A DNA stretch of 39,368 nucleotides, taken from the sequence record OR545379. The stretch is one strand, 5' to 3'. The notes under the pieces are model-generated. The model was not told where the DNA came from. It saw only the letters and a list, made by a program, of their open reading frames with translations, and ran no database searches. Origin of the DNA: Escherichia phage Sekstaphage-1. This document shows positions 2,985 through 38,514 of the stretch, in pieces; within the stretch, counting starts at the first letter, position 1; each line of letters opens with the position of its first letter. The position numbers were made by a program, and so were the translations under genes.

Positions 2985-5639
2985 ATGAACATCATCGAAA
3001 CTATCGAAAAGAACGACTTCTCTGAAATCGAACTGGCTGCAATCCCGTTCAACACTCTGGCAGACCATTACGGTAGCGCATTGGCTCGTGAACAACTAGC
3101 TTTAGAGCATGAGTCTTATGAGCTAGGCGAGCGCCGCTTCCTCAAGATGCTTGAGCGTCAAGCGAAAGCTGGTGAGATTGCAGACAACGCAGCCGCTAAG
3201 CCATTACTCGCTACGCTTCTCCCTAAGTTAACCGCACGTATCGTCGAGTGGCTCGAAGAGTACGCATCGAAGAAAGGCCGCAAGCCTAGCGCTTATGCTC
3301 CGCTCCAGCTACTCAAGCCGGAAGCCTCCGCGTTTATCACCCTGAAAGTTATCCTTGCGTCACTGACCAGCACGAGCATGACAACCATTCAGGCCGCTGC
3401 TGGTATGCTGGGGAAGGCCATTGAGGATGAGGCACGTTTCGGGCGCATCCGTGACCTCGAAGCGAAGCACTTCAAGAAGCACGTTGAGGAACAGCTTAAC
3501 AAGCGCCACGGGCAAGTCTACAAGAAAGCCTTTATGCAGGTGGTCGAGGCCGATATGATTGGTCGAGGTCTGCTTGGTGGCGAGGCGTGGTCTAGCTGGG
3601 ATAAAGAAACCACGATGCACGTAGGGATTCGCCTGATTGAAATGCTGATTGAATCCACGGGTCTGGTGGAATTACAGCGCCACAACGCAGGTAACGCAGG
3701 CTCTGACCATGAGGCACTGCAACTGGCCCAAGAGTACGTGGACGTATTAGCGAAGCGTGCAGGCGCTCTAGCGGGTATCTCTCCGATGTTCCAGCCGTGT
3801 GTCGTACCGCCGAAACCTTGGGTAGCAATCACCGGGGGCGGCTATTGGGCTAACGGTCGCAGACCTTTGGCACTCGTTCGCACTCACTCTAAGAAGGGTC
3901 TGATGCGCTACGAAGATGTGTACATGCCAGAAGTTTATAAGGCGGTCAACATTGCACAGAACACCGCATGGAAAATCAATAAGAAAGTCCTCGCGGTTGT
4001 CAACGAGATTGTGAACTGGAAGAACTGCCCTGTAGCAGACATTCCTTCGCTGGAGCGCCAAGAGTTACCGCCTAAGCCGGACGACATTGACACCAACGAG
4101 GCAGCACTAAAGGAGTGGAAGAAAGCCGCCGCTGGTATCTACCGCTTGGACAAGGCACGAGTGTCTCGCCGTATCAGCTTAGAGTTCATGCTGGAGCAGG
4201 CCAACAAGTTCGCAAGCAAGAAAGCAATCTGGTTCCCTTACAACATGGACTGGCGCGGTCGTGTGTATGCTGTGCCGATGTTCAACCCGCAAGGCAACGA
4301 CATGACGAAAGGTCTGCTGACCCTCGCTAAAGGCAAGCCAATCGGTGAGGAAGGTTTCTACTGGCTGAAAATCCACGGTGCGAACTGTGCGGGTGTCGAT
4401 AAGGTTCCTTTCCCTGAGCGCATCGCGTTCATTGAGAAGCACGTAGACGACATTCTGGCTTGCGCTAAAGACCCAATCAATAACACTTGGTGGGCCGAGC
4501 AGGATTCACCTTTCTGTTTCCTCGCGTTCTGCTTCGAGTATGCAGGCGTTGCTCACCACGGTCTGAGTTACAATTGCTCTCTGCCGCTGGCGTTCGACGG
4601 GTCTTGCTCTGGTATCCAGCACTTCTCCGCGATGCTCCGCGATGAGGTAGGCGGTCGTGCGGTTAACCTGCTGCCAAGCGAAACCGTGCAGGACATTTAC
4701 GGCATCGTTGCACAGAAAGTAAACGAGATTCTCAAACAGGATGCAATCAACGGCACACCTAACGAGATGATTACCGTGACCGACAAGGACACCGGGGAAA
4801 TCTCAGAGAAGCTCAAGCTGGGAACCTCAACGCTGGCGCAACAGTGGCTGGCATATGGTGTAACCCGTAGCGTAACTAAACGTTCGGTCATGACGCTGGC
4901 CTACGGCTCCAAGGAGTTCGGCTTCCGTCAACAGGTACTGGACGACACCATTCAGCCTGCGATTGACAGCGGTAAGGGCTTGATGTTCACCCAACCTAAC
5001 CAAGCGGCTGGCTATATGGCTAAGCTGATTTGGGACGCGGTGAGCGTGACCGTAGTCGCAGCGGTTGAGGCGATGAACTGGCTCAAGTCTGCCGCTAAGC
5101 TGCTGGCTGCTGAGGTCAAGGACAAGAAGACCAAGGAGATTCTGCGCCACCGTTGCGCGGTTCACTGGACTACGCCTGACGGCTTCCCGGTCTGGCAGGA
5201 ATACCGTAAGCCACTCCAGAAGCGTCTCGACATGATTTTCTTAGGGCAATTCCGTCTGCAACCGACGATTAATACCCTCAAGGATTCAGGCATTGATGCG
5301 CACAAGCAGGAGTCTGGCATTGCGCCTAACTTTGTTCACTCACAGGACGGTAGCCACCTCCGTATGACAGTCGTTTATGCTCACGAGAAGTATGGCATTG
5401 ATTCCTTTGCGCTCATCCATGACAGCTTTGGGACTATCCCGGCAGACGCTGGTAAGCTCTTTAAGGCTGTGCGTGAAACGATGGTAATTACCTACGAGAA
5501 CAACGATGTGCTGGCAGACTTCTATGACCAGTTTGCAGACCAGCTACACGAGACCCAACTGGACAAGATGCCTCCGCTTCCGAAGAAAGGAAACCTGAAC
5601 CTGCAAGACATTCTCAAGTCTGACTTTGCCTTTGCATAA
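2985..5639 (+). CDS. 1: Single-subunit DNA-dependent RNA polymerase (T3-type promoter specificity)
   Basis: 884 aa from the ATG at 2985 (MNIIETIEKNDFSEIELAAIPFNTLADHYG); collinear with T7 RNAP. The track ORF at 2892 is an in-frame upstream extension. Confidence 0.97.
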   Translation: MNIIETIEKNDFSEIELAAIPFNTLADHYGSALAREQLALEHESYELGERRFLKMLERQAKAGEIADNAAAKPLLATLLPKLTARIVEWLEEYASKKGRKPSAYAPLQLLKPEASAFITLKVILASLTSTSMTTIQAAAGMLGKAIEDEARFGRIRDLEAKHFKKHVEEQLNKRHGQVYKKAFMQVVEADMIGRGLLGGEAWSSWDKETTMHVGIRLIEMLIESTGLVELQRHNAGNAGSDHEALQLAQEYVDVLAKRAGALAGISPMFQPCVVPPKPWVAITGGGYWANGRRPLALVRTHSKKGLMRYEDVYMPEVYKAVNIAQNTAWKINKKVLAVVNEIVNWKNCPVADIPSLERQELPPKPDDIDTNEAALKEWKKAAAGIYRLDKARVSRRISLEFMLEQANKFASKKAIWFPYNMDWRGRVYAVPMFNPQGNDMTKGLLTLAKGKPIGEEGFYWLKIHGANCAGVDKVPFPERIAFIEKHVDDILACAKDPINNTWWAEQDSPFCFLAFCFEYAGVAHHGLSYNCSLPLAFDGSCSGIQHFSAMLRDEVGGRAVNLLPSETVQDIYGIVAQKVNEILKQDAINGTPNEMITVTDKDTGEISEKLKLGTSTLAQQWLAYGVTRSVTKRSVMTLAYGSKEFGFRQQVLDDTIQPAIDSGKGLMFTQPNQAAGYMAKLIWDAVSVTVVAAVEAMNWLKSAAKLLAAEVKDKKTKEILRHRCAVHWTTPDGFPVWQEYRKPLQKRLDMIFLGQFRLQPTINTLKDSGIDAHKQESGIAPNFVHSQDGSHLRMTVVYAHEKYGIDSFALIHDSFGTIPADAGKLFKAVRETMVITYENNDVLADFYDQFADQLHETQLDKMPPLPKKGNLNLQDILKSDFAFA

Positions 5640-5650
5640 CAAGCACTTAG

Positions 5651-5673
5651 CATTAACCCTCACTAACAGGAGA
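5651..5673 (+). promoter_or_regulatory. Phage RNAP promoter (phi1.1-like)
   Basis: cATTAACCCTCACTAACAGGAGA, 21/23 match to the T3 consensus. Confidence 0.8.
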
Positions 5674-5675
5674 GT

Positions 5676-5712
5676 TAAACTCAAGGTCATCTTCGGGTGG
5701 CCTTTGTGATTA
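5676..5712 (+). promoter_or_regulatory. RNase III processing hairpin (R1.1-like)
   Basis: AAACTCAAGGTCATCTTCGGGTGGCCTTTGTGATT. Confidence 0.65.
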
Positions 5713-5746
5713 ACTTTCAATACACATCAACATGAGGTAAGATACT

Positions 5747-5887
5747 ATGCGTACCAACTTTGAGAAATTTACCAAGCGCGATTCAGTGGTCAACGAGAAT
5801 GGCGAACAGTGGCAAGAGCGCCGTGACCGCATGAAGAAACGCCACAAGCAACAGCGCGGTAACTCACAGAAACGGGAGTGGAACTAA
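5747..5887 (+). CDS. 1.1: Small basic protein, gene 1.1 homolog
   Basis: 46-aa ORF (MRTNFEKFTKRD...QKREWN) below the track length cut-off; resembles T7 gp1.1 as I recall it. Confidence 0.7.
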   Translation: MRTNFEKFTKRDSVVNENGEQWQERRDRMKKRHKQQRGNSQKREWN

Positions 5888-5889
5888 CG

Positions 5890-6162
5890 ATGGGACGTAT
5901 CTATAGCGGAAACCTGAACGATTACAAGGACGCCATTGAGCGCCTTAAAGAAGACCACGATGTAACAGTGTCGATGGAGACATTCAGCTACGAAAACCCG
6001 GCGAAGATGTGCAGGTCATGTGGTGAGGTTCTCCGTGTGTTCACACGCTCCGGGCATCTGGTGGCATCCAGAACCTTCGAGCATAGCGACAGCGATGTAC
6101 AAATCAACGCGCAGACTGCATGGCTCCGTAAGGTTCACAGCGAATTGAAACACTGGAAGTAA
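5890..6162 (+). CDS. 1.2: Inhibitor of host dGTP triphosphohydrolase (gp1.2)
   Basis: 90 aa from ATG 5890 (MGRIYSGNL...LKHWK); matches T7 gp1.2 at both ends. The track start at 5878 is a GTG extension. Confidence 0.85.
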   Translation: MGRIYSGNLNDYKDAIERLKEDHDVTVSMETFSYENPAKMCRSCGEVLRVFTRSGHLVASRTFEHSDSDVQINAQTAWLRKVHSELKHWK

Positions 6163-6182
6163 TAACCCTCACTAAAGGGAGA
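6160..6182 (+). promoter_or_regulatory. Phage RNAP promoter (phi1.3-like)
   Basis: tAATAACCCTCACTAAAGGGAGA. Confidence 0.85.
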
Positions 6183-6200
6183 ACGAAAGGAGGAAACATT

Positions 6201-6656
6201 ATGAGAATTTCATTTGACTTAATGAGTCCTTCCTTTCTCTCATGGGATACGGGTCGTCACACTGGCGGCTCTATTCGCAACGGCTATAGAAGGGTTCGTT
6301 ATGAAGGTAAGTGGTTAAACCATCACATACTCATTTGGGAACACTTCAACGGTGCAGTCCCGGAGGGAATGGAAGTAGACCACATTGACCGTAACAAACT
6401 TAACAACGCGCCTAGTAACCTTAGACTTGTGACCCGCTCTGAGAACAACCGAAATCGGTCAGTACACCGGAACAACAAGTCAGGAATCAAAGGTGTCTAC
6501 TGGCACAAACACCGCCAAGTTTGGTACGGTCAGTGTCGAAGGGGCAACAAAACATTTATCACCGCTGGTTGCTCCACGAAGGAACAGGCGGCAGAACTTT
6601 TAGAGAAACTCAAAGAGGAAATTAATTATGATGATTTTCAAAACCGTCCCGTATAA
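6201..6656 (+). CDS. Free-standing HNH homing endonuclease with C-terminal AP2-like DNA-binding domain
   Basis: 151 aa with AAAGGAGG ribosome-binding site; HNH_3-type core WLNHHILIWEHFNGAVPEGMEVDHIDRNKLNNAPSNLRLVTRSEN and AP2-like GIKGVYWHK...KTFITAGCSTKEQAAELLEKL; sits between gene 1.2 and the ligase. Confidence 0.85.
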   Translation: MRISFDLMSPSFLSWDTGRHTGGSIRNGYRRVRYEGKWLNHHILIWEHFNGAVPEGMEVDHIDRNKLNNAPSNLRLVTRSENNRNRSVHRNNKSGIKGVYWHKHRQVWYGQCRRGNKTFITAGCSTKEQAAELLEKLKEEINYDDFQNRPV

Positions 6657-7644
6657 GGCTGTGTCATTCGTAGAGTCTGCCGTTAAGAAAGCGCTGGAGA
6701 CCTCCGGCTACCTAATGGCTGACATTAAGTATGATGGCGTGCGCGGTAACATTGTGGTTGATAACGTGGCTGAGGCTGCGTGGCTGTCCCGTGTGTCCAA
6801 GTTTATCCCGGCGCTGGAACACCTGAACGGTTTCGATAAGCGCTGGCAACAACTGCTGAACGATGACCGATGCATCTTCCCGGATGGCTTCATGCTGGAT
6901 GGCGAACTGATGGTCAAAGGTGTAGACTTCAACACCGGGTCTGGCCTGCTGCGTACCAAGTGGCTCAAGAAGAACAACTTCATGTTTGACCGTGGTGGTG
7001 TTGAGCCGCTGAAAGGTTCCAAAGTAGCCTTTGAGTTAGACCCCAAGCTACTCAGTGTTCGCCTGTATGCTGTCATGCCGATTCACATTGCTGAGTCTGG
7101 CGAGGACTACGATGTGCAGAACCTCCTGATGCCATATCATGTGGAAGCCATGCGCTCCCTTCTGGTTGAATACTTCCCGGAAATCGAGTGGCTTATCGCT
7201 GAGACCTACGAGGTCTACGATATGGATTCGCTGACTGAATTGTACGAAGAGAAGCGTGCCGAAGGTCACGAGGGTCTCATTGTGAAAGACCCGCAAGGCA
7301 TCTACAAGCGAGGCAAGAAGTCTGGCTGGTGGAAGCTAAAGCCTGAGTGTGAAGCTGATGGTATCATTCAGGGTGTCAATTGGGGAACCGAAGGGTTAGC
7401 CAACGAGGGTAAAGTGATAGGCTTTAGTGTGCTTCTTGAGACTGGTCGTTTAGTAGACGCCAACAACATCTCTCGCGCACTGATGGACGAGTTCACAGCC
7501 AACGTTAAAGCCCACGGTGAAGACTTCTACAATGGGTGGGCCTGTCAGGTCAACTACATGGAAGAAACCCCTGACGGCTCCCTGCGTCACCCTAGCTTCG
7601 AGAAGTTCCGAGGCACTGAGGACAACCCTCAAGAGAAAATGTAA
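6628..7644 (+). CDS. 1.3: ATP-dependent DNA ligase
   Basis: 338 aa; adenylation motif KYDGVRG and long collinearity with T7 ligase; its start overlaps the end of the upstream HNH gene by 29 nt. Confidence 0.95.
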   Translation: MMIFKTVPYKAVSFVESAVKKALETSGYLMADIKYDGVRGNIVVDNVAEAAWLSRVSKFIPALEHLNGFDKRWQQLLNDDRCIFPDGFMLDGELMVKGVDFNTGSGLLRTKWLKKNNFMFDRGGVEPLKGSKVAFELDPKLLSVRLYAVMPIHIAESGEDYDVQNLLMPYHVEAMRSLLVEYFPEIEWLIAETYEVYDMDSLTELYEEKRAEGHEGLIVKDPQGIYKRGKKSGWWKLKPECEADGIIQGVNWGTEGLANEGKVIGFSVLLETGRLVDANNISRALMDEFTANVKAHGEDFYNGWACQVNYMEETPDGSLRHPSFEKFRGTEDNPQEKM

Positions 7645-12875: not shown

Positions 12876-14834
12876 ATGCTCGTAAGTGACATTGAGGCCA
12901 ACAACCTCTTAGAGAAAGTCACCAAGTTTCACTGTGGCGTCATCTATGACTACCGTGATGGTGAGTATCATAGTTATCGTCCGGGCGACTTCGGGGCGTA
13001 TCTGGATGCGCTGGAAGCCGAGGTGAAGCGAGGTGGGCTTATTGTTTTCCATAACGGTCACAAGTATGACGTTCCTACATTGACCAAACTGGCAAAGCTG
13101 CAATTGAACCGAGAGTTCCACCTTCCTCGTGAGAACTGTATCGACACCCTTGTGCTGTCACGCTTGATTCACTCTAACCTAAAGGACACCGATATGGGTC
13201 TTCTACGTTCCGGTAAACTTCCGGGGAAACGCTTTGGGTCTCACGCTCTGGAGGCGTGGGGTTATCGCTTAGGCGAGATGAAGGGTGAATACAAGGATGA
13301 CTTTAAGCGTATGCTTGAAGAGCAAGGCGAAGAATACGTTGACGGAATGGAGTGGTGGAACTTCAATGAAGAGATGATGGACTATAACGTTCAGGACGTT
13401 GTGGTCACTAAGGCTCTCCTTGAGAAGCTACTCTCTGACAAACATTACTTCCCTCCTGAGATTGACTTTACGGACGTAGGTTACACTACGTTCTGGTCAG
13501 AATCCCTTGAGGCCGTTGATGTTGAACATCGCGCTGCATGGCTACTCGCTAAGCAAGAGCGCAATGGATTCCCGTTTGACACGAAAGCAATCGAAGAGTT
13601 GTACGTAGAGTTAGCTGCTAGACGCTCTGAGTTGCTACGTAACTTGACCGAAACGTTTGGCTCGTGGTATCAACCTAAAGGTGGAACAGAAATGTTCTGC
13701 CATCCACGAACAGGTAAGCCACTACCTAAATACCCTCGCATTAAGATACCTAAAGTTGGTGGTATCTTTAAGAAGCCTAAGAACAAGGCACAGCGAGAAG
13801 GCCGTGAGCCTTGCGAACTGGATACCCGCGAGTACGTTGCTGGCGCTCCTTATACTCCAGTGGAGCACGTAGTGTTTAACCCTTCGTCTCGTGACCACAT
13901 CCAGAAGAAACTCCAAGAGGCTGGGTGGGTCCCAACTAAGTTCACCGATAAGGGTGCTCCTGTGGTGGACGATGAGGTACTCGAAGGAGTACGCGTAGAT
14001 GACCCTGAGAAGCAAGCGGCTATCGACCTCATTAAAGAGTACTTGATGATTCAGAAGCGAATCGGACAGTCTGCTGAGGGAGACAAGGCATGGCTTCGTT
14101 ACGTTGCTGAGGACGGTAAGATTCATGGTTCTGTTAACCCTAATGGAGCAGTTACGGGTCGTGCGACCCATGCGTTCCCCAACCTTGCGCAAATTCCGGG
14201 TGTACGTTCTCCTTATGGAGAGCAGTGTCGCGCTGCTTTTGGCGCTGAGCACCATTTGGATGGGATAACTGGTAAGCCTTGGGTTCAGGCAGGTATCGAC
14301 GCATCCGGCCTTGAGTTGCGCTGCTTGGCCCACTTCATGGCTCGCTTTGATAACGGTGAGTATGCTCACGAGATTCTTAATGGTGACATCCACACTAAGA
14401 ACCAGATGGCTGCTGAATTACCTACCCGTGATAACGCTAAGACGTTCATCTATGGGTTCCTCTATGGTGCTGGTGATGAGAAGATTGGGCAGATTGTTGG
14501 TGCTGGTAAAGAGCGCGGTAAGGAACTCAAGAAGAAATTCCTTGAGAACACACCTGCGATTGCAGCACTACGTGAGTCTATACAACAGACGCTTGTCGAA
14601 TCCTCTCAGTGGGTAGCTGGTGAGCAGCAAGTCAAGTGGAAACGCCGCTGGATTAAAGGTCTGGATGGTCGTAAGGTACACGTTCGTAGTCCTCACGCTG
14701 CCCTGAATACCCTACTGCAATCCGCTGGTGCTCTCATCTGCAAACTGTGGATTATCAAGACCGAAGAGATGCTCGTAGAGAAAGGCTTGAAGCACGGCTG
14801 GGATGGGGACTTTGCGTACATGGCATGGGTGCAT
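12876..14834 (+). CDS. 5: DNA polymerase gene 5, exon 1 (codons 1-653)
   Basis: Collinear with T7 gp5 up to ...[13 protein letters not shown]; the ORF then runs into intron sequence and stops after 7 unrelated codons. Confidence 0.95.
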
Positions 14835-15435
14835 AAACTATTTCATTGTGCACATTAAATCTGGTGAACTCGGTGAAACCCTACTGGGGCAATACCGAGC
14901 CAAGCCATAGGGAGGATATATGAGAGGCAAGAAGTTAATTCTTGAGGCCACTGAGACTGGCTGTATCATCCCTACGTCACACAAACTTAATGCCGATGGT
15001 TATTTCAGAAAGAAAACCAATGGCACATTGGAAATGTATCACAGAACGGTGTGGAAGGAGCATAACGGAGACATACCTGATGGCTTCGAGATAGACCATA
15101 AGTGTCGCAATAGGGCTTGCTGTAACATAGAACATTTACAGATGCTTGAAGGTACAGCCCACACTGTTAAGACCAATCGTGAACGCTACGCAGACAGAAA
15201 GGAAACAGCTAGAGAATATTGGCTGGAGACTGGATGTACAGGCATGGCACTCGGTGAGAAGTTTGGTGTGTCGTTCTCTTCCGCTTGTAAGTGGATTAGA
15301 GAATGGAAGGCGTAGAGACTATCCGAAAGGAGTAGGGCCGAGGGTGAGACTCCCTCGTAACCCGAAGCGCCAGACAGTCAACTCAAAGGCTGATGATATA
15401 GTCCGACACTCCTAGTAATAGGAGAATACAGAAAG
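14835..15435 (+). mobile_element. Group I self-splicing intron in the DNA polymerase gene, carrying an HNH endonuclease ORF
   Basis: 601 nt separate two in-frame polymerase segments; exon 1 ends in U (14834); GTGCAC at 14848-14853 can pair with the exon end GTGCAU giving the U-G pair typical of P1; the intron ends in G (15435). Confidence 0.85.
14920..15315 (+). CDS. Intron-encoded HNH homing endonuclease
   Basis: 131 aa with GGGAGGA ribosome-binding site; HNH/zinc motif DGFEIDHKCRNRACCNIEHLQMLEGTAHTVKTN; lies wholly inside the intron. Confidence 0.85.
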   Translation: MRGKKLILEATETGCIIPTSHKLNADGYFRKKTNGTLEMYHRTVWKEHNGDIPDGFEIDHKCRNRACCNIEHLQMLEGTAHTVKTNRERYADRKETAREYWLETGCTGMALGEKFGVSFSSACKWIREWKA

Positions 15436-15591
15436 GATGAAATCCAAGTAGGTTGCCGTACCGAAGAGATTGCTCAGGTGGTCATTGAGACAGCACAAGA
15501 AGCAATGCGCTGGGTTGGAGACCACTGGAACTTCCGGTGTCTTCTGGATACCGAAGGTAAGATGGGTCCTAATTGGGCCGTATGTCACTAA
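15436..15591 (+). CDS. 5: DNA polymerase gene 5, exon 2 (codons 654-704)
   Basis: Encodes DEIQVGCRTEEIAQVVIETAQEAMRWVGDHWNFRCLLDTEGKMGPNWAVCH, the C-terminus of T7 gp5; in frame with exon 1 once the intron is removed, giving 704 aa. Confidence 0.9.
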   Translation, partial: DEIQVGCRTEEIAQVVIETAQEAMRWVGDHWNFRCLLDTEGKMGPNWAVCH

Positions 15592-15610
15592 TTCTATAGG
15601 AGAAATTATT

Positions 15611-32916: not shown

Positions 32917-34920
32917 ATGGCTACAACTATTAAGACCGTGATGACTTACCCACTGGATGGCTCCACTACGGACTTTAATATTCCGTTCGAGTATCTGGCG
33001 CGTAAGTTCGTCCGAGTGACCCTTATCGGTGTTGACCGAAAGGAACTCATCTTGAATCAAGACTATCGTTTTGCAACTAAGACCACAATCTCCACAACGA
33101 GAGCATTGGGGCCAGCGGACGGATATACTTTGATTGAAATCAGGCGATTCACCTCCGCTACAGATCGTCTGGTTGACTTTACCGACGGCTCTATCCTGCG
33201 GGCATATGATTTGAACATATCTCTGGTTCAGGCCCTTCACGTTGCTGAGGAAGCCCGTGACCTTACCGCTGATACAATTGGCGTTAACAATGATGGGAAC
33301 TTGGATGCTCGTGGTCGTAAGATTGTGAACCTAGCGTTCGCCACCAGTGACTATGATGCTGTCCCTCTGAAGCAGGTTAAGGAACGTGAGACCTCTGTGT
33401 GGAGTGCTGTTGCTAAAGCTGATGAACATGCTAACCGTTCTAACACTGAGGCTAACCGTTCTCGTGATGAGGCCAACCGTGCTCAACGTGAAGCTGACCG
33501 CTCAACGCAACAGGCAGGTGTCTCTACGCAACAAGCGGTTGAGTCCAAGAAGCAAGCTGACCGTTCCAACTCTGAGGCCAACCGTGCTAAAGGTTACGCT
33601 GATAGTATGCCAGCCAGTGTTGAAGCCGCAAAGGGTCACGCTGACCGTTCCAATAAGGAAGCTGACCGTGCTCGTGATGAGGCCAATCGTGCTGCTGGAG
33701 AAGTCACTAAGGCGGCTGCTGAGGTTGCCAAGGCTGCTGCACATGTTGAGACCGCTAAGGGACATGCTGACCGAGCCAACACTGAGGCAAACCGCTCCAA
33801 GAGTGAAGCTGACCGTGCAAAGACCGAGGCTGACAAGTTAGGCAACATGAATGCACTTGCAGGGGCTGTTGAAAGTGTATCAGGCAATGATGTACGCTTT
33901 AAGGGTAAAGTAAGTGGGCGCAGTCTGACTCTACATAATGATGCTAAAGGCGCTGGGACTCAACCAGTAGACCAAGTGTGGAATCAGTGGCGTGGTCAGG
34001 ACTCTAAGGAGACTGTGTGGGAACAGTGGATTCAAGCTGGGACAAAACGAATGGACTACTATGCGTTCACTAACACCGACCCGGCAACGTGGCCTGAAGG
34101 TCGTTCCAATAGCAAAGGACACCATAGCTTCTATGGTGACGTTCTGTTTGCTGGTGGTAACGTCGAGATGCACGGGAACCTTAAGGTAAACGCAGTTGAG
34201 TCTAGAAATAACGTGTTCATCTCCGACAAAGCCGCAAGTTTCAAGAGTAACACACATGGTGGTGGCTGGAACCAGTGGACTAGTAGCTTGAATCCAGACC
34301 TACAGCATGATATTGCTGGACAAGGGGACGTTGCATATCTCCTTGAGAGGGCTACAATTTGGGGCAAAGAACACCTGTATGCCAAGTGCTTATATAACAA
34401 CGGCACTGGCGCTAACTTCTTTATCAGGCAATATCTGCGAGGCACCTATTTCGACCTACGCTCCGATGGTGTCCTTGCCTGCTCTTCTGGTTGGAACATC
34501 CCAGCCGATGGTAACCTATATATCAAGAAGTACGGAATGTACATTGATGCGTGGGTAAATAATCGTCTGTCCGAACATGCCTACAACAAAGGAGAAGTGA
34601 ACAACTTGGTCAACGGTCGTCTTACCACTGGTCAGGGTGATGGTCGCTATGTCCGCAAGAACGCTGGGTGGGCTGAGGTCTGGAGCGGCCATGCTGGTGG
34701 TGGTGTTTCCGTAGGTCTCTCACAGGATGTCCGATGGAGAACTATCTGGATTCAAACTAATGGGCGCTGGAACGCTGTTCCTATTGGTGACGACGCACGA
34801 TACTTCATCTCGTCTGATGGTGGTTGGCTTAAGTTCACAATCTCTAACAACGGGAGAACTTTCCGTAATGATGCTGACCGTAGTTCTGTGCCTACGAGAA
34901 TCTTGATTCAAAACCAATAA
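32917..34920 (+). CDS. 17: Tail fibre protein (gp17)
   Basis: 667 aa from ATG 32917 (MATTIKTVMTYPLDGSTTDFNIPFEYLARKF...); N-terminal 150 aa and the C-terminal tip (...WSGHAGGGVSVGLSQDVRWRTIWIQ...) are T7 gp17-like; the centre is repeat-rich. Confidence 0.93.
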   Translation: MATTIKTVMTYPLDGSTTDFNIPFEYLARKFVRVTLIGVDRKELILNQDYRFATKTTISTTRALGPADGYTLIEIRRFTSATDRLVDFTDGSILRAYDLNISLVQALHVAEEARDLTADTIGVNNDGNLDARGRKIVNLAFATSDYDAVPLKQVKERETSVWSAVAKADEHANRSNTEANRSRDEANRAQREADRSTQQAGVSTQQAVESKKQADRSNSEANRAKGYADSMPASVEAAKGHADRSNKEADRARDEANRAAGEVTKAAAEVAKAAAHVETAKGHADRANTEANRSKSEADRAKTEADKLGNMNALAGAVESVSGNDVRFKGKVSGRSLTLHNDAKGAGTQPVDQVWNQWRGQDSKETVWEQWIQAGTKRMDYYAFTNTDPATWPEGRSNSKGHHSFYGDVLFAGGNVEMHGNLKVNAVESRNNVFISDKAASFKSNTHGGGWNQWTSSLNPDLQHDIAGQGDVAYLLERATIWGKEHLYAKCLYNNGTGANFFIRQYLRGTYFDLRSDGVLACSSGWNIPADGNLYIKKYGMYIDAWVNNRLSEHAYNKGEVNNLVNGRLTTGQGDGRYVRKNAGWAEVWSGHAGGGVSVGLSQDVRWRTIWIQTNGRWNAVPIGDDARYFISSDGGWLKFTISNNGRTFRNDADRSSVPTRILIQNQ

Positions 34921-34967
34921 TGGAATACAACGAGGCCACGGATGGTCTCAACAATAAGGAGGACACA

Positions 34968-35174: not shown

Positions 35175-35436
35175 CGATAAATCTTTGATTCAATTCCTTG
35201 AGATGCTGGACACTGAGATGGCTCAACGTATGCTTGCTGACTTGCAGAACGATGAACGACGCACACCTCAACTGTACAACGCAATCGGGAAACTATTAGA
35301 GCGCCACAAATTCCAAGTCTCCAAGTTACAGCCAGACCGTAACATCCTTGGTGGACTGGCAGATGGACTCGAAGAGTACCAGAACATGGTGGGCGCTGAT
35401 GGTCTCACTGAAGACGAGAAGTACACGCTTAACTGA
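35167..35436 (+). CDS. 18: Terminase small subunit (gp18)
   Basis: 89 aa, the same length as T7 gp18; GAAGGAGGG ribosome-binding site. Confidence 0.9.
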   Translation: MSNDKSLIQFLEMLDTEMAQRMLADLQNDERRTPQLYNAIGKLLERHKFQVSKLQPDRNILGGLADGLEEYQNMVGADGLTEDEKYTLN

Positions 35437-35439
35437 TGG

Positions 35440-35478
35440 TAATACTCAAGGTCATCTTAATGGTGGCCTTTATGGATT
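35440..35478 (+). promoter_or_regulatory. RNase III processing hairpin (R18.5-like)
   Basis: TAATACTCAAGGTCATCTTAATGGTGGCCTTTATGGATT. Confidence 0.6.
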
Positions 35479-35494
35479 ATCAATAGGAGGTGAT

Positions 35495-35896
35495 ATGGAA
35501 GGAATGTATAGAAGTGGTGGTTACTGGAAGGTTACTATAAACGGTAAAGTACACGGTGTACACAGGTTGTTGTGGGAAGCTGCCTATGGCTCAATACCAG
35601 ATGGTTATGTTATAGACCACATTGACAGAGATGGTCTTAATAATTCTCTTGATAACTTACGGTGCATACCGAAGGGAGCTAACAAGGCAAACACTGTATC
35701 CTCAAGGGACTTACCGAAGGGAGTATACTCTCGGTTTGCCAAGCGACTTAACTGCATTGTGTACTATGGGGATATTAGAATGGGAGGTGTGAAGAAAACA
35801 CATGCTCCTACTAAGAATCTGAAGGAAGTCGTGGACTGGTCTATTAAGACTCACAAGCAGATGCTGGGGGAAACATATGGGATTCAAAACAGTTAA
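35495..35896 (+). CDS. Free-standing HNH homing endonuclease with AP2-like domain
   Basis: 133 aa from ATG 35495 with AGGAGG ribosome-binding site; HNH core HRLLWEAAYGSIPDGYVIDHIDRDGLNNSLDNLRCIP; sits between gene 18 and gene 18.5. Confidence 0.85.
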   Translation: MEGMYRSGGYWKVTINGKVHGVHRLLWEAAYGSIPDGYVIDHIDRDGLNNSLDNLRCIPKGANKANTVSSRDLPKGVYSRFAKRLNCIVYYGDIRMGGVKKTHAPTKNLKEVVDWSIKTHKQMLGETYGIQNS

Positions 35897-36332
35897 GAGC
35901 TACGCCATCGCTGTGGCCTTTGCCTTGGGGATGACCCTTGCGTACAACCACGGCTATGACAAGGCTAACACTAAATGGGAACAGGAGGTGCACAATGAGT
36001 ACGTTAAGAAAGTTGAGGCGACTGCGGATAAACAGGCTGCTCTCAATGAAGTCTCACGACAATACCAAGAAGACCTTGCGGCGCTGGAAGGCAGCACTGA
36101 TAGGGTCATTAATGATTTGCGTAACGATGGTAAGCGGCTGTCAGTCCGCGTCAAGAACCTTACCGGACTACCGAAAGGTGACGGTCGATGCGAGTTTGAT
36201 GGTCGAGCCGAACTACACGAGTCAGATGCTAAGCGTATTATCGGAATAGCCCAAGCTGCTGATGCTCACGTAAGAGCGTTGCAGAAAACTATTAAGGAGA
36301 TGCAGAATGAGCGACACCCAAGCAAATCGTAA
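35877..36332 (+). CDS. 18.5: Inner-membrane spanin (Rz-like, gp18.5)
   Basis: 151 aa; N-terminal transmembrane segment [15 protein letters not shown], then [16 protein letters not shown]...[20 protein letters not shown] matching T7 gp18.5. Confidence 0.85.
35995..36249 (+). CDS. 18.7: Outer-membrane lipoprotein spanin (Rz1-like, gp18.7) embedded in gene 18.5
   Basis: 84 aa from ATG 35995 in the +1 frame of gene 18.5; signal peptide with lipobox (VSGC) and Pro-rich mature part; AGGAGG ribosome-binding site. Confidence 0.8.
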   Translation: MSTLRKLRRLRINRLLSMKSHDNTKKTLRRWKAALIGSLMICVTMVSGCQSASRTLPDYRKVTVDASLMVEPNYTSQMLSVLSE

Positions 36333-38070
36333 TGCGCTAATCATTGCGCAGCTTAAGGGTGACTTCGTGGCCTTCCTGTTCGTATTGTGGAAGGCTTTGG
36401 CTCTCCCGCCACCGACTAAGTGTCAGATTGATATGGCCCGGTGTCTGGCTAACGGAGACAACAAGAAGTTTATCCTACAGGCTTTCCGTGGTATCGGTAA
36501 GTCATTCATCACCTGTGCGTTCGTTGTGTGGACGTTATGGCGTGACCCTCAGTTAAAGATACTGATTGTCTCTGCATCCAAAGAACGTGCGGACGCTAAC
36601 TCCATCTTCATTAAGAACATCATTGATCTTCTGCCCTTCTTGGCTGAGCTAAAGCCTCGTCCCGGTCAGCGTGACTCTGTGATTAGTTTCGATGTTGGCC
36701 CTGCCAAGCCTGACCACTCTCCGTCTGTGAAGTCGGTGGGTATCACTGGTCAGTTGACTGGTAGTCGTGCTGATATCATCATAGCGGATGACGTTGAGAT
36801 TCCGTCTAACTCCGCAACTCAAGGTGCCCGTGAGAAGCTGTGGACTCTGGTGCAGGAATTTGCTGCGCTTCTGAAACCGCTGCCGACCTCTCGCGTTATC
36901 TACCTTGGTACGCCTCAAACCGAAATGACCTTGTACAAGGAACTCGAAGATAACCGTGGGTACACCACAATCATCTGGCCCGCGCTCTATCCGCGTAGCC
37001 GTGAGGAAGACTTGTACTATGGCGACCGTCTGGCCCCGATGCTCCGCGAAGAGTTCAACGATGGGTTCGAGATGCTCCAAGGTCAACCGACTGACCCCGT
37101 GCGCTTCGATATGGAAGACCTGCGTGAGCGTGAGTTGGAATACGGTAAGGCTGGCTTCACTTTGCAGTTCATGCTCAACCCGAACCTGAGTGATGCCGAG
37201 AAGTACCCCTTACGCCTCCGTGATGCTATCGTGTGCGGTCTGGACTTCGAGAAAGCCCCAATGCATTACCAGTGGCTTCCGAACCGTCAGAATCGCAATG
37301 AAGAGCTACCTAACGTGGGCCTTAAGGGTGATGACATTCATAGCTATCATTCATGCAGTCAGAACACTGGACAGTACCAACAGCGCATCCTCGTGATTGA
37401 CCCTAGTGGTCGCGGTAAGGATGAGACAGGTTACGCAGTGTTGTTCACCCTGAATGGCTACATCTATCTGATGGAAGCTGGCGGGTTCCGCGATGGTTAT
37501 TCCGATAAGACCCTTGAGTCCCTCGCTAAGAAAGCGAAGCAGTGGAAGGTTCAGACAGTGGTCTTCGAGAGTAACTTCGGGGATGGTATGTTTGGTAAGG
37601 TATTCAGCCCGGTTCTCCTGAAACACCATGCAGCGCAGCTTGAAGAGATTCGTGCTCGTGGTATGAAGGAACTACGCATTTGTGATACGCTGGAGCCTGT
37701 ACTCTCTACGCACCGCCTTGTGATTCGTGACGAGGTGATTCGTGAGGACTACCAGACTGCCCGTGACGCCGATGGCAAGCATGACGTTCGATACTCGTTG
37801 TTCTACCAGTTGACCCGTATGGCTCGTGAGAAGGGCGCTGTGGCCCACGATGACCGACTTGATGCGTTAGCATTAGGTGTGGAGTTCTTACGCTCTACGA
37901 TGGAACTGGACGCCGTGAAGGTGGAAGCTGAGGTGCTTGAGGCATTCTTAGAGGAACACATGGAGCACCCAATCCATTCGGCTGGTCACGTAGTTACCGC
38001 TATGGTTGACGGGATGGAACTCTATTGGGAGGATGACGATGTGAATAGCAACAGGTTCATTGACTGGTAA
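36307..38070 (+). CDS. 19: Terminase large subunit (gp19)
   Basis: 587-aa ORF; size and position of T7 gp19; overlaps the end of gene 18.5 as in T7. Confidence 0.95.
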
Positions 38071-38079
38071 GGAGGTAAT

Positions 38080-38514
38080 ATGTTTGACGTGAGGTATGAC
38101 CCGGATGTGCCGGGGTGCCTCTCTAACTCTAAGGGTGAGCAACTCGCAGTTCTACAAGGAGAATACTTCAAGTGGAACGGCGGGAGTGCTCATCGTATTA
38201 TATGGGAAGGCTTCAATGGGAGGATACCAGACGGTTACATGGTTGACCATATAAACCGCAACAAGCAGGACAATCGGATAGAGAACCTACGACTGGTCAC
38301 TCGGTCCCAGAATGTCCACAACTCCAAGCGTAAGAGGGCCGATGGGATGCCCAAAGGAATTACAGCACGCCAGCGGGACTTTAGGATTCTGGTCCATAAG
38401 GATTGTAAGAAGTACGTAAGGTACGCACCGACACTTGCGGAAGCCATAAAGGTCCGCGAGGAGCTTGTAGAGTCCTTGGGCCTGTCTGCATATTATGTCG
38501 ATTCATCCGCATAA
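38080..38514 (+). CDS. Free-standing HNH homing endonuclease with AP2-like domain
   Basis: 144 aa with AAGGAGG ribosome-binding site; HNH core HRIIWEGFNGRIPDGYMVDHINRNKQDNRIENLRLVTRSQN and AP2-like KGITARQRDFRILVHKDCKKYVRYAPTLAEAIKVREEL; starts 10 nt after the gene 19 stop. Confidence 0.85.
   Translation: MFDVRYDPDVPGCLSNSKGEQLAVLQGEYFKWNGGSAHRIIWEGFNGRIPDGYMVDHINRNKQDNRIENLRLVTRSQNVHNSKRKRADGMPKGITARQRDFRILVHKDCKKYVRYAPTLAEAIKVREELVESLGLSAYYVDSSA

Follow-up and report, generated by a model that had tools for sequence, protein, structure and literature searches.

Between gene 1.2 and the DNA ligase gene of Escherichia phage Sekstaphage-1 (Sxt1) lies an open reading frame of 151 aa with an ATG start (6201..6656, + strand), which on the combined evidence of the ORF call, profile searches and a structural model encodes an HNH endonuclease of the HNN type with an AP2-like domain. 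With a probability of roughly three in four, it is interpreted here as a free-standing HNN-AP2 homing endonuclease gene (HEG) of a lineage specialised for the phi1.3 promoter/ligase junction of T7-like phages. Coordinates refer to the window, the whole stretch of DNA that was analysed (39,368 bp), which is a complete T3-like phage genome with terminal repeats of 227 bp and, across 94% of its first 25 kb, shares 96.6% identity with T3. In Table S1 of the published Sxt1 genome, ORF 8 (6201-6656) is listed as "HNH endonuclease" and ORF 9 (6628-7644) as the gp1.3 DNA ligase, and its authors reported four homing HNH nuclease genes that are absent from T3 and T7 (PMC11680406). The source of Sxt1 was a therapeutic cocktail.

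Organization of the gene 1.2/ligase junction

The upstream neighbour of the ORF is gene 1.2 (5890..6162, + strand), encoding the dGTPase inhibitor (Pfam T7-like_gp12, E 1e-13; PHROG 2949, E 3e-37). It is followed by a T3-type phage RNA polymerase promoter, phi1.3 (TAATAACCCTCACTAAAGGGAGA, 23 nt, 6160..6182, + strand), identified by a pattern search and by homology to T3, with a predicted +1 at G6177. The pattern for T3-type promoters gave 12 matches within the window against 0 expected by chance, and the phi1.3 promoter of the window is the positional homologue of the annotated T3 phi1.3 promoter at T3 6498-6520. Direct reading of the sequence places a Shine-Dalgarno element, AAAGGAGG, at 6186..6193 (+ strand), 7 nt from the ATG of the HNH gene. 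The original prediction, made from the sequence of the window, had given the ORF a ribosome-binding site of its own and a position after a phi1.3-type promoter, and both features are indeed present.

Downstream lies gene 1.3 (6628..7644, + strand), encoding an ATP-dependent DNA ligase of 338 aa with the Pfam domains DNA_ligase_A_M and DNA_ligase_C. From the ORF coordinates, the 3' end of the HNH gene at 6656 runs past the ligase start at 6628, giving the 29-nt overlap in different reading frames that had been predicted (6628..6656, + strand). The overlap has this length in the window because the T3-type ligase lacks the ATTAAG which is the source of the stop codon in other lineages. The ligase Shine-Dalgarno, read from the sequence as GAGG (6615..6618, + strand; 9 nt to the ATG at 6628), is located inside HNH codons E139-E140, an arrangement common to all homologues. 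A precise deletion of the ORF would therefore harm the translation signals of the ligase, as the prediction had also held.

Comparison of the junction with T3 confirmed that the gene is wedged between gene 1.2 and the ligase. A segment of the window at 6184..6626 (+ strand) was left uncovered by blastn against T3, and junction alignments indicate that this inserted cassette has no T3 counterpart and replaces T3 6521-6594, which holds the R1.3 stem-loop and the ligase ribosome-binding site. Divergence from T3 runs on through approximately ligase codon 11 (~6660), with near-identity thereafter, and the N-terminus of the ligase reads MMIFKTVPYKAV in the window versus MNIFKTNPFKAV in T3. Judged from these alignments, the cassette has displaced R1.3 together with the native ribosome-binding site of the ligase and roughly its first 11 codons. 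In genomes with an empty site the gap from the promoter to the ligase ATG is ~74 nt and contains the ligase ribosome-binding site as well as R1.3, an annotated RNase III site. The claim that the T7 ligase directly follows the promoter was thus incorrect, as these ~74 nt intervene in both T3 and T7. The junctions of T7 and of the T7-type carriers were read by eye, the MAFFT alignment having misplaced the short T7 sequence.

The site is empty in T3, phiSG-JL2, ZCEA1 and 59 of the 60 best-matching T3-like records, with a junction span of 589-591 nt in the empty-site records versus 960 nt in Klebsiella phage ChM-G5. Universal presence by vertical inheritance, which would have spoken against mobility, is not what is seen among these relatives.

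Predicted RNA structure around the translation signals

A pyrimidine tract, GTCCTTCCTTTCTCTC, occupies codons 9-14 of the HNH gene (6227..6242, + strand), and RNA folding predicts that in the phi1.3 transcript it base-pairs with the Shine-Dalgarno of this gene. In a single-sequence fold of the window, the predicted leader hairpin (6179-6242) has a minimum free energy of -20.2 kcal/mol (z -2.0). Similar pairing of the Shine-Dalgarno with a conserved pyrimidine tract was predicted in four of five lineages (z -1.5 to -2.0) and was absent from the T7-type lineage. A consensus fold of the 5' leaders of nine loci gave no covariation support for the hairpin and returned a different, weak structure instead, and for these reasons the hairpin, a hypothetical translational damper of the HNH gene, remains only a hint. 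Such damping has been reported for homing endonuclease genes of T4, which the predicted hairpin recalls. The 3' end of the HNH gene together with the ligase start showed no structure in the RNA fold (z -0.2).

Domain composition and predicted fold

The original prediction described the 151-aa product as an HNH_3-type protein, and the profile searches agree. Pfam HNH_3 (PF13392) matches residues 42-84 with 72.2 bits, well above the gathering cut-off of 24.8 (E 2.6e-20), and matches to PHROG HNH families reach E 7e-44. The catalytic core defined by Pfam and by the alignment (aa 42-84; 6324..6452, + strand) is the most conserved part of the protein, and no family member was found without it. In an alignment of 45 homologues, D60, H61, N69 and N73 do not vary, while the conservation of N82 and N85 is at least 90%. 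By these residues the nuclease of the window is an HNN variant of HNH without Cys dyads.

An AlphaFold model with a mean pLDDT of 91 comprises N-terminal strands at residues 3-40, a beta-beta-alpha core and a C-terminal domain of three strands plus a helix. The core, with strands at 57-61 and 74-78 and a helix at 79-85, corresponds to the beta-beta-alpha metal-finger fold. The profile, the model and Foldseek all relate the N-terminal beta-strand region (aa 1-40; 6201..6320, + strand) to the N-terminal DNA-binding region of I-HmuI. The family profile matches I-HmuI (PDB 1u3e) over residues 10-114 (E 1.3e-17), covering the N-terminal region and the catalytic core, and the same structure is the top Foldseek match (probability 1.00, 30% identity over 99 columns), with AP2 domains coming next.

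The AP2 part of the prediction stood only in part. For the single protein, the match to Pfam AP2 (PF00847) is sub-threshold (17.5 bits versus 33.3, E 0.005), and the homologues of the five lineages gave either 14-18 bits, always sub-threshold, or no match to this model. At the level of the family, positions 101-163 of the profile built from the alignment (A3) match solved plant AP2/ERF domains, namely WRI1 (E 3e-9), TEM1 (1.1e-5) and ERF096 (4.9e-4), and precomputed PF00847 matches are present on more distant homologues. The AP2-like DNA-binding domain assigned by profile, model and Foldseek (aa 94-141; 6480..6623, + strand) is modelled with strands at 99-102, 107-114 and 117-120 and a helix at 127-140, all with pLDDT above 90. 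Foldseek superposes it on the TEM1 AP2 domain with an rmsd of 2.0 A over 53 columns (probability 0.97) and on a T. gondii AP2 protein with an rmsd of 2.4 A over 58 columns. As the single protein falls below the Pfam threshold, the HNH-AP2 label is correct only when judged by the family profile and by the confidently predicted fold, which agree.

Distribution and site fidelity

Among 50,697 phage records only three carriers were identified, all with the gene at the gp1.2/ligase junction. These are Klebsiella phage ChM-G5 (100% nucleotide identity to the gene of the window), in which the copy is already annotated as an HNH endonuclease in GenBank, VSG32 (99.8%) and the T7-like Yersinia phage vB_Yep_9 (about 75%). 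Further homologues, found in a large protein database and in metagenome assemblies and included in alignment A3, form clusters at 64-82% protein identity. In every copy examined, from five phage lineages including those of ChM-G5, VSG32 and vB_Yep_9, the gene is located between gp1.2 and the ligase. Four promoter types occur among the carriers (T3-type, T7-type, AATTAAGACTCACTATTGGAGG and TAATACGACTCACTAATGGAGG), with the HNH ATG lying 9-18 nt past the phage promoter in every carrier examined and the 3' end of the gene overlapping the ligase ATG by 11, 17 or 29 nt. The relatives recovered by a scan of IMG/VR with the HNH protein were all distant, not exceeding 45% identity across most of its length, and none lay at the junction; the family was found at none of the 21 informative IMG/VR ligase loci.

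A frameshift interrupts the AP2 region of the vB_Yep_9 copy, and so decaying copies also exist, as expected late in the life cycle of a homing endonuclease. In VSG32, the ligase is cut short at codon 31, immediately ahead of the KYDG adenylation motif, and continues as a fusion with a second HNH ORF.

Divergence of the cassette and its flanks

If the gene is mobile, the cassette should be more similar between carriers than the DNA on either side, and this was observed in each of the comparisons that follow. The window and ChM-G5 are identical at 456 of 456 nt of the HNH gene, compared with 92.7% identity in gp1.2 and 96.9% in the ligase. In the pairwise comparison, the tract of 100% identity extends over 6001..6701 (+ strand), beyond which 24 mismatches occur in the 262 nt to its left and 21 in the 235 nt to its right. 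Against VSG32 there are four mismatches across 6178-6720 as opposed to 40 in the 439 nt directly upstream, and the break in similarity falls in the promoter initiation region. Three other lineage pairs behave alike: in the first (L114 and L116) the HNH gene is 99.5% identical with flanks at 89.5% and 92.4%, in the second (L117 and L119) 96.6% with flanks at 88.1% and 79.3%, and in the third (L122 and L123) there are three mismatches in 444 nt of HNH sequence versus 141 in 600 nt of left flank. Overall, the four lineage pairs differ by 0-15 mismatches in ~440 nt of HNH sequence versus 8-23% in the flanks. Cassette identity is 96.6-100% for phages that diverge by 3-23% in flanking sequence, and the tracts of low divergence mostly begin near -50 and end between about +25 and +135 relative to the ORF. 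The cassette is bracketed by conserved sequences, namely the promoter and the 5' end of the ligase, through which it could be exchanged by ordinary homologous recombination with no nuclease involved.

A homing gene is expected to occur sporadically at one position between conserved genes and to be more similar than its flanks, a mark of horizontal spread, and both features are seen here. The cassette data fit an active or recently active free-standing homing endonuclease, with cleavage and homing being putative activities. The ORF is intergenic, has its own Shine-Dalgarno and ATG and is not embedded in an intron or intein. Since a search of the whole window against Rfam at gathering thresholds gave no match, no intron or riboswitch is tied to the ORF. 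A scan at a laxer E-value, restricted to 14700-15600, gave the only group I intron signal, which lies in the DNA polymerase gene.

Proposed mechanism of homing

Under the homing endonuclease reading, the gene would be transcribed early to middle in infection from phi1.3 and by read-through from upstream, with its own strong Shine-Dalgarno directing translation, which the hairpin may damp. During co-infection, the protein, presumably an elongated monomer made up of the N-terminal beta region, the HNH core and the AP2 domain, would bind the empty allele of a relative, most likely within the ~110 bp between R1.3 and the ligase 5' end, a segment which in the carrier has given way to the cassette. 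It would then nick or cut the DNA at that site, and the analogy with I-HmuI and MobE makes a strand-specific nick turned into a break by replication plausible. Phage recombination would repair the break from the HNH-carrying genome and copy the cassette, carrying over promoter-proximal flanking sequence and the first 40-135 nt of the ligase as well. An incidental consequence would be the loss of R1.3, with translation of the ligase coming to rely on the Shine-Dalgarno within the last HNH codons.

The minimal tract common to Sxt1, ChM-G5 and VSG32 (~6178-6665) suggests a site in or next to the replaced T3 6521-6632. The original prediction had put the target in the ligase or gene 1.2 region of relatives lacking the insert. 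The comparative data point to the stretch from R1.3 to the ligase 5' end of such relatives as the probable target, rather than to gene 1.2, and since this segment is absent or altered in the carrier, the carrier would be immune. Ligase codon 7 was also considered as a target or immunity polymorphism, being Asn in 15 of 17 empty alleles and never in the five carrier lineages; this correlation, while suggestive, was not used as evidence for the site because linkage to the cassette and the shared phylogeny of the alleles both confound it.

In an extended form of the homing endonuclease reading, the gene would be an entrenched, site-locked element that has usurped part of the expression signals of the operon by deleting R1.3 and supplying the ligase Shine-Dalgarno, and that is kept under purifying selection as strong as that on the ligase for its use as a weapon against HEG-less T7-like co-infectors, with its dose tuned by the hairpin. 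This extension is regarded as unlikely.

Selection and alternative explanations

The gene is under purifying selection, with dN/dS of 0.04-0.29 (dS being saturated) comparable to that of the ligase. Divergence between lineages is likewise similar in the two proteins, at 66-82% aa for HNH and 66-78% for the ligase, and therefore long co-residence and vertical descent with occasional loss fits this divergence as well as repeated homing does. Purifying selection at the level of the ligase could also point to a function that is beneficial to the phage.

One alternative is a domesticated nuclease that serves the phage, for example by cutting competitor genomes (exclusion), by promoting recombination or replication around the primary origin region or by acting against host defences, with homing being secondary. 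Both the low dN/dS and the divergence that tracks the ligase would be accounted for, as would the strong promoter and Shine-Dalgarno and the tight integration with ligase expression, and phage homing endonucleases have recently been reported to be able to affect host defences (PMC13096335; bioRxiv 10.1101/2025.09.07.674715). However, nearly all close relatives, T3 included, thrive without the gene, and one natural copy is frameshifted. In other phages the same position is taken by an unrelated HNH gene, a pattern characteristic of homing hot spots but not of functions that a phage requires. A primarily beneficial role is considered rather improbable.

Still less probable is a passive cargo, that is an inactive or non-specific nuclease gene moved by ordinary homologous recombination via the conserved promoter and ligase 5' sequences. 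The genomes are mosaic with many exchange tracts, other tracts of 100% identity being found between the window and ChM-G5 (e.g., 3100-3800), and the boundaries of the cassette tracts coincide with the conserved flanks. An inert passenger should decay, though, whereas here the catalytic residues do not vary and the gene is under strong purifying selection, and in four lineage pairs the tract of low divergence is centred on the HNH gene.

That the protein is instead a DNA-binding regulator, with a vestigial HNH core and an AP2-like domain that binds near phi1.3 and the ligase start to modulate transcription or translation, is very improbable: AP2 domains are sequence-specific DNA binders and the gene is placed at a promoter and runs into the start of the ligase, but the conservation described above is greatest in the HNH core, which every HNH-AP2 family member retains, and relatives control their ligase without any such protein.

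A terminase-associated HNH protein (an HK97 gp74-like packaging factor) was rejected, given that the ORF is located in the early/middle region ~29 kb from the terminase genes. The HNH gene described in a Hafnia phage paper is a different gene which adjoins the terminase and is irrelevant to the gp1.2/ligase site.

Significance

The element is an ordinary selfish nuclease gene of a known class which had already been annotated. What is added here is its strict site fidelity across lineages, the exact boundaries of the cassette, the loss of R1.3 and the dependence of ligase translation on the cassette. Beyond annotation its import is small, the result being a clean, well-bounded family of one-site homing endonucleases across several T7-like genera. 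For the engineering of T3-like and T7-like phages or their use in cocktails, the 1.2/1.3 junction should be regarded as a natural insertion hot spot at which precise removal of the HNH ORF would take the ligase ribosome-binding site with it. Co-infection with HEG-less relatives may, in addition, bias the inheritance of the gene 1.2 to ligase region.

Comparison with known systems

Free-standing HNH homing endonucleases that spread by "intronless homing" have been described previously (PMC2790892, PMC2988022), and MobE of T4 is one such protein, nicking the neighbouring nrdB of phages without mobE (PMC2790892). The HNH gene of the window resembles the MobE type in lying between conserved genes, in its sporadic occurrence, in the co-inheritance of its flanks and in having its expression tied to its neighbours. 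It differs in being found in a T7-like podovirus, as opposed to a T4-like myovirus, and at a different target locus. Unlike the promoterless mobE, it is also promoter-proximal with a strong Shine-Dalgarno, and its cleavage and homing activities are putative.

I-HmuI (PDB 1U3E) is a nicking HNH endonuclease of a group I intron in Bacillus phage SPO1. The protein of the window shares with it the homologous N-terminal beta DNA-binding region and the HNN-type catalytic core, but unlike the intron-encoded I-HmuI it is free-standing, which places it outside the I-HmuI-like intron-encoded class, and nicking by it is presumed by analogy. The match to I-HmuI ends at about residue 114, and the C-terminal DNA-binding part of that enzyme, a helix-turn-helix domain, has no counterpart here, the AP2-like domain being found instead.

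Free-standing genes for HNN-AP2 endonucleases are common in phages, having been reported from Xp10, OP1, Xop411, T1, T5, RB16 and RB43 (PMC2248197, which cites Magnani et al., 2004). The features shared with those genes are an HNN core without Cys dyads joined to AP2, multiple copies per phage genome and the existence of degenerate copies. The HNN-AP2 genes of Xanthomonas phages, however, were described as dispersing without conserved flanks (PMC2248197), whereas the family described here is strictly confined to one site in five lineages.

A parallel in location is the Patroon-type HNH gene of the Teetrevirus phages Patroon, E-2, ECA2, ESh12 and others, whose product of 138 aa combines HNH_3 with zf-His_Me_endon. 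Like the gene of the window, it directly follows the phi1.3 promoter, replaces R1.3 and supplies the Shine-Dalgarno of the ligase, overlapping the ligase ATG by 4 nt. Its product, unlike that of the window, has a Cys-containing zinc loop and no AP2 domain, and the two are only distantly related (~29% identity over 73 aa). Two unrelated HNH genes compete for the gp1.2/ligase site, and since the Patroon-type gene occupies exactly the same position, the junction can be described as a homing hot spot.

Occupants of the Promoter/Ligase Junction

The junction between the phi1.3 promoter and the ligase gene, occupied in Sekstaphage-1 by the 151-aa HNH-AP2 endonuclease gene (6201–6656), is used by more than one type of HNH gene. 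In Klebsiella phage Patroon (locus L003, 1434–1850) the same promoter/ligase site holds an unrelated HNH protein of 138 aa, with HNH_3 and zf-His_Me_endon domains, and this Patroon-type gene was found there in about nine T3-like phages and in four IMG/VR contigs (L090–L092 and L096). The Patroon-type cassette likewise takes the place of the RNase III site R1.3 and overlaps the ATG of the ligase gene by 4 nt. Both cassettes have ACGAAA as the first bases after the promoter, a common start which may be due to chance.

Where the exchanged tract has its left edge there is a variant in the initiation region of phi1.3 (6174–6179), which has the consensus AAAGGGAGA in Sekstaphage-1 and Klebsiella phage ChM-G5 and reads AACAGGAGA in T3, Klebsiella phage VSG32, Patroon and the empty relatives. 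As VSG32 and Patroon share the form of T3 and the empty relatives, this variant is independent of the presence of an HNH gene. On the ligase side, comparison of 6646–6656 with the homologous ligase codons 7–9 showed codon 7 to be Asn in 15 of the 17 empty-site loci, T3- and T7-like. The five lineages having the HNH gene of the Sekstaphage-1 type have Val, Ile, Met, Ala or Ser there. This difference may be a polymorphism tied to the target or to immunity, or may reflect nothing more than linkage to the cassette.

An Apparent Nested Insertion and a Frameshifted Copy in Related Phages

The ligase gene of VSG32 (locus L005, 2244–2804) retains only its first 31 codons and ends just short of the KYDG adenylation motif. 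The resulting stub continues without a change of frame into a second HNH_3 (AP2-like) endonuclease ORF, with the remainder of the ligase being absent. This arrangement suggests that a second insertion is nested here, at a conserved catalytic motif. The T7-lineage copy of the HNH gene in Yersinia phage vB_Yep_9 (locus L006, about 2130–2223) has a 1-nt deletion when compared to another pair of carriers (L117 and L119), so that the AP2-like domain is read in another frame and the C-terminus becomes KKMVKHLEHPAATQRN... in place of KKNGKTFRTSCCHTKEQAA...; either this copy is in decay or the deletion is an error of sequencing.

HNH Genes Elsewhere in the Sekstaphage-1 Genome

An HNH_3 ORF of 182 aa (35348–35896; E = 1.6e-17) lies between the small terminase subunit and spanin genes, its site being in a segment (35478–35967) with no counterpart in T3. 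The TTG start listed for it overlaps the upstream gene, and its true start is uncertain. Another, of 144 aa (38080–38514; E = 8e-23), is found immediately 3' of the large terminase gene, again at a segment (38070–38508) with no counterpart in T3; ChM-G5 possesses an HNH gene, orf046, at the matching position.

The DNA polymerase gene is interrupted by a group I intron of ~600 nt (14825–15425), inserted between the AWVH and DEIQV of a conserved polymerase motif and bearing an HNH_3 ORF of 131 aa (14920–15315). Its match to Rfam RF00028, obtained in a laxer E-value scan of 14700–15600, scored 44 bits (E = 8.7e-10), below the gathering score of 50. The polymerase ORF terminates at 14858, with its C-terminal 52 aa continuing in frame from ~15437 in a second exon (about 15437–15594). 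The gene table of the published phage Sxt1, which is this genome, gives 15478–15591 as a "hypothetical protein" (PMC11680406), and so the intron appears to have gone unannotated.

Identity among the four HNH ORFs of the genome ranges from 28 to 61% over the HNH core, and they are distant paralogs only.

Other Differences from T3

Sekstaphage-1 lacks gene 1.05 of T3. At 5640–5746 its sequence is about 340 nt shorter than those of T3 and ChM-G5, T3 5717–5989 being missing, and a single site (5654–5673) seems to be a fusion of the promoters of phi1.05 and phi1.1 type. Neither T3 nor ChM-G5 matches Sekstaphage-1 at the nucleotide level over the C-terminal part of the tail fiber region (33337–34932), in agreement with the description of Sxt1, in which recombination is stated to be the source of the tail fiber and internal virion proteins (PMC11680406).
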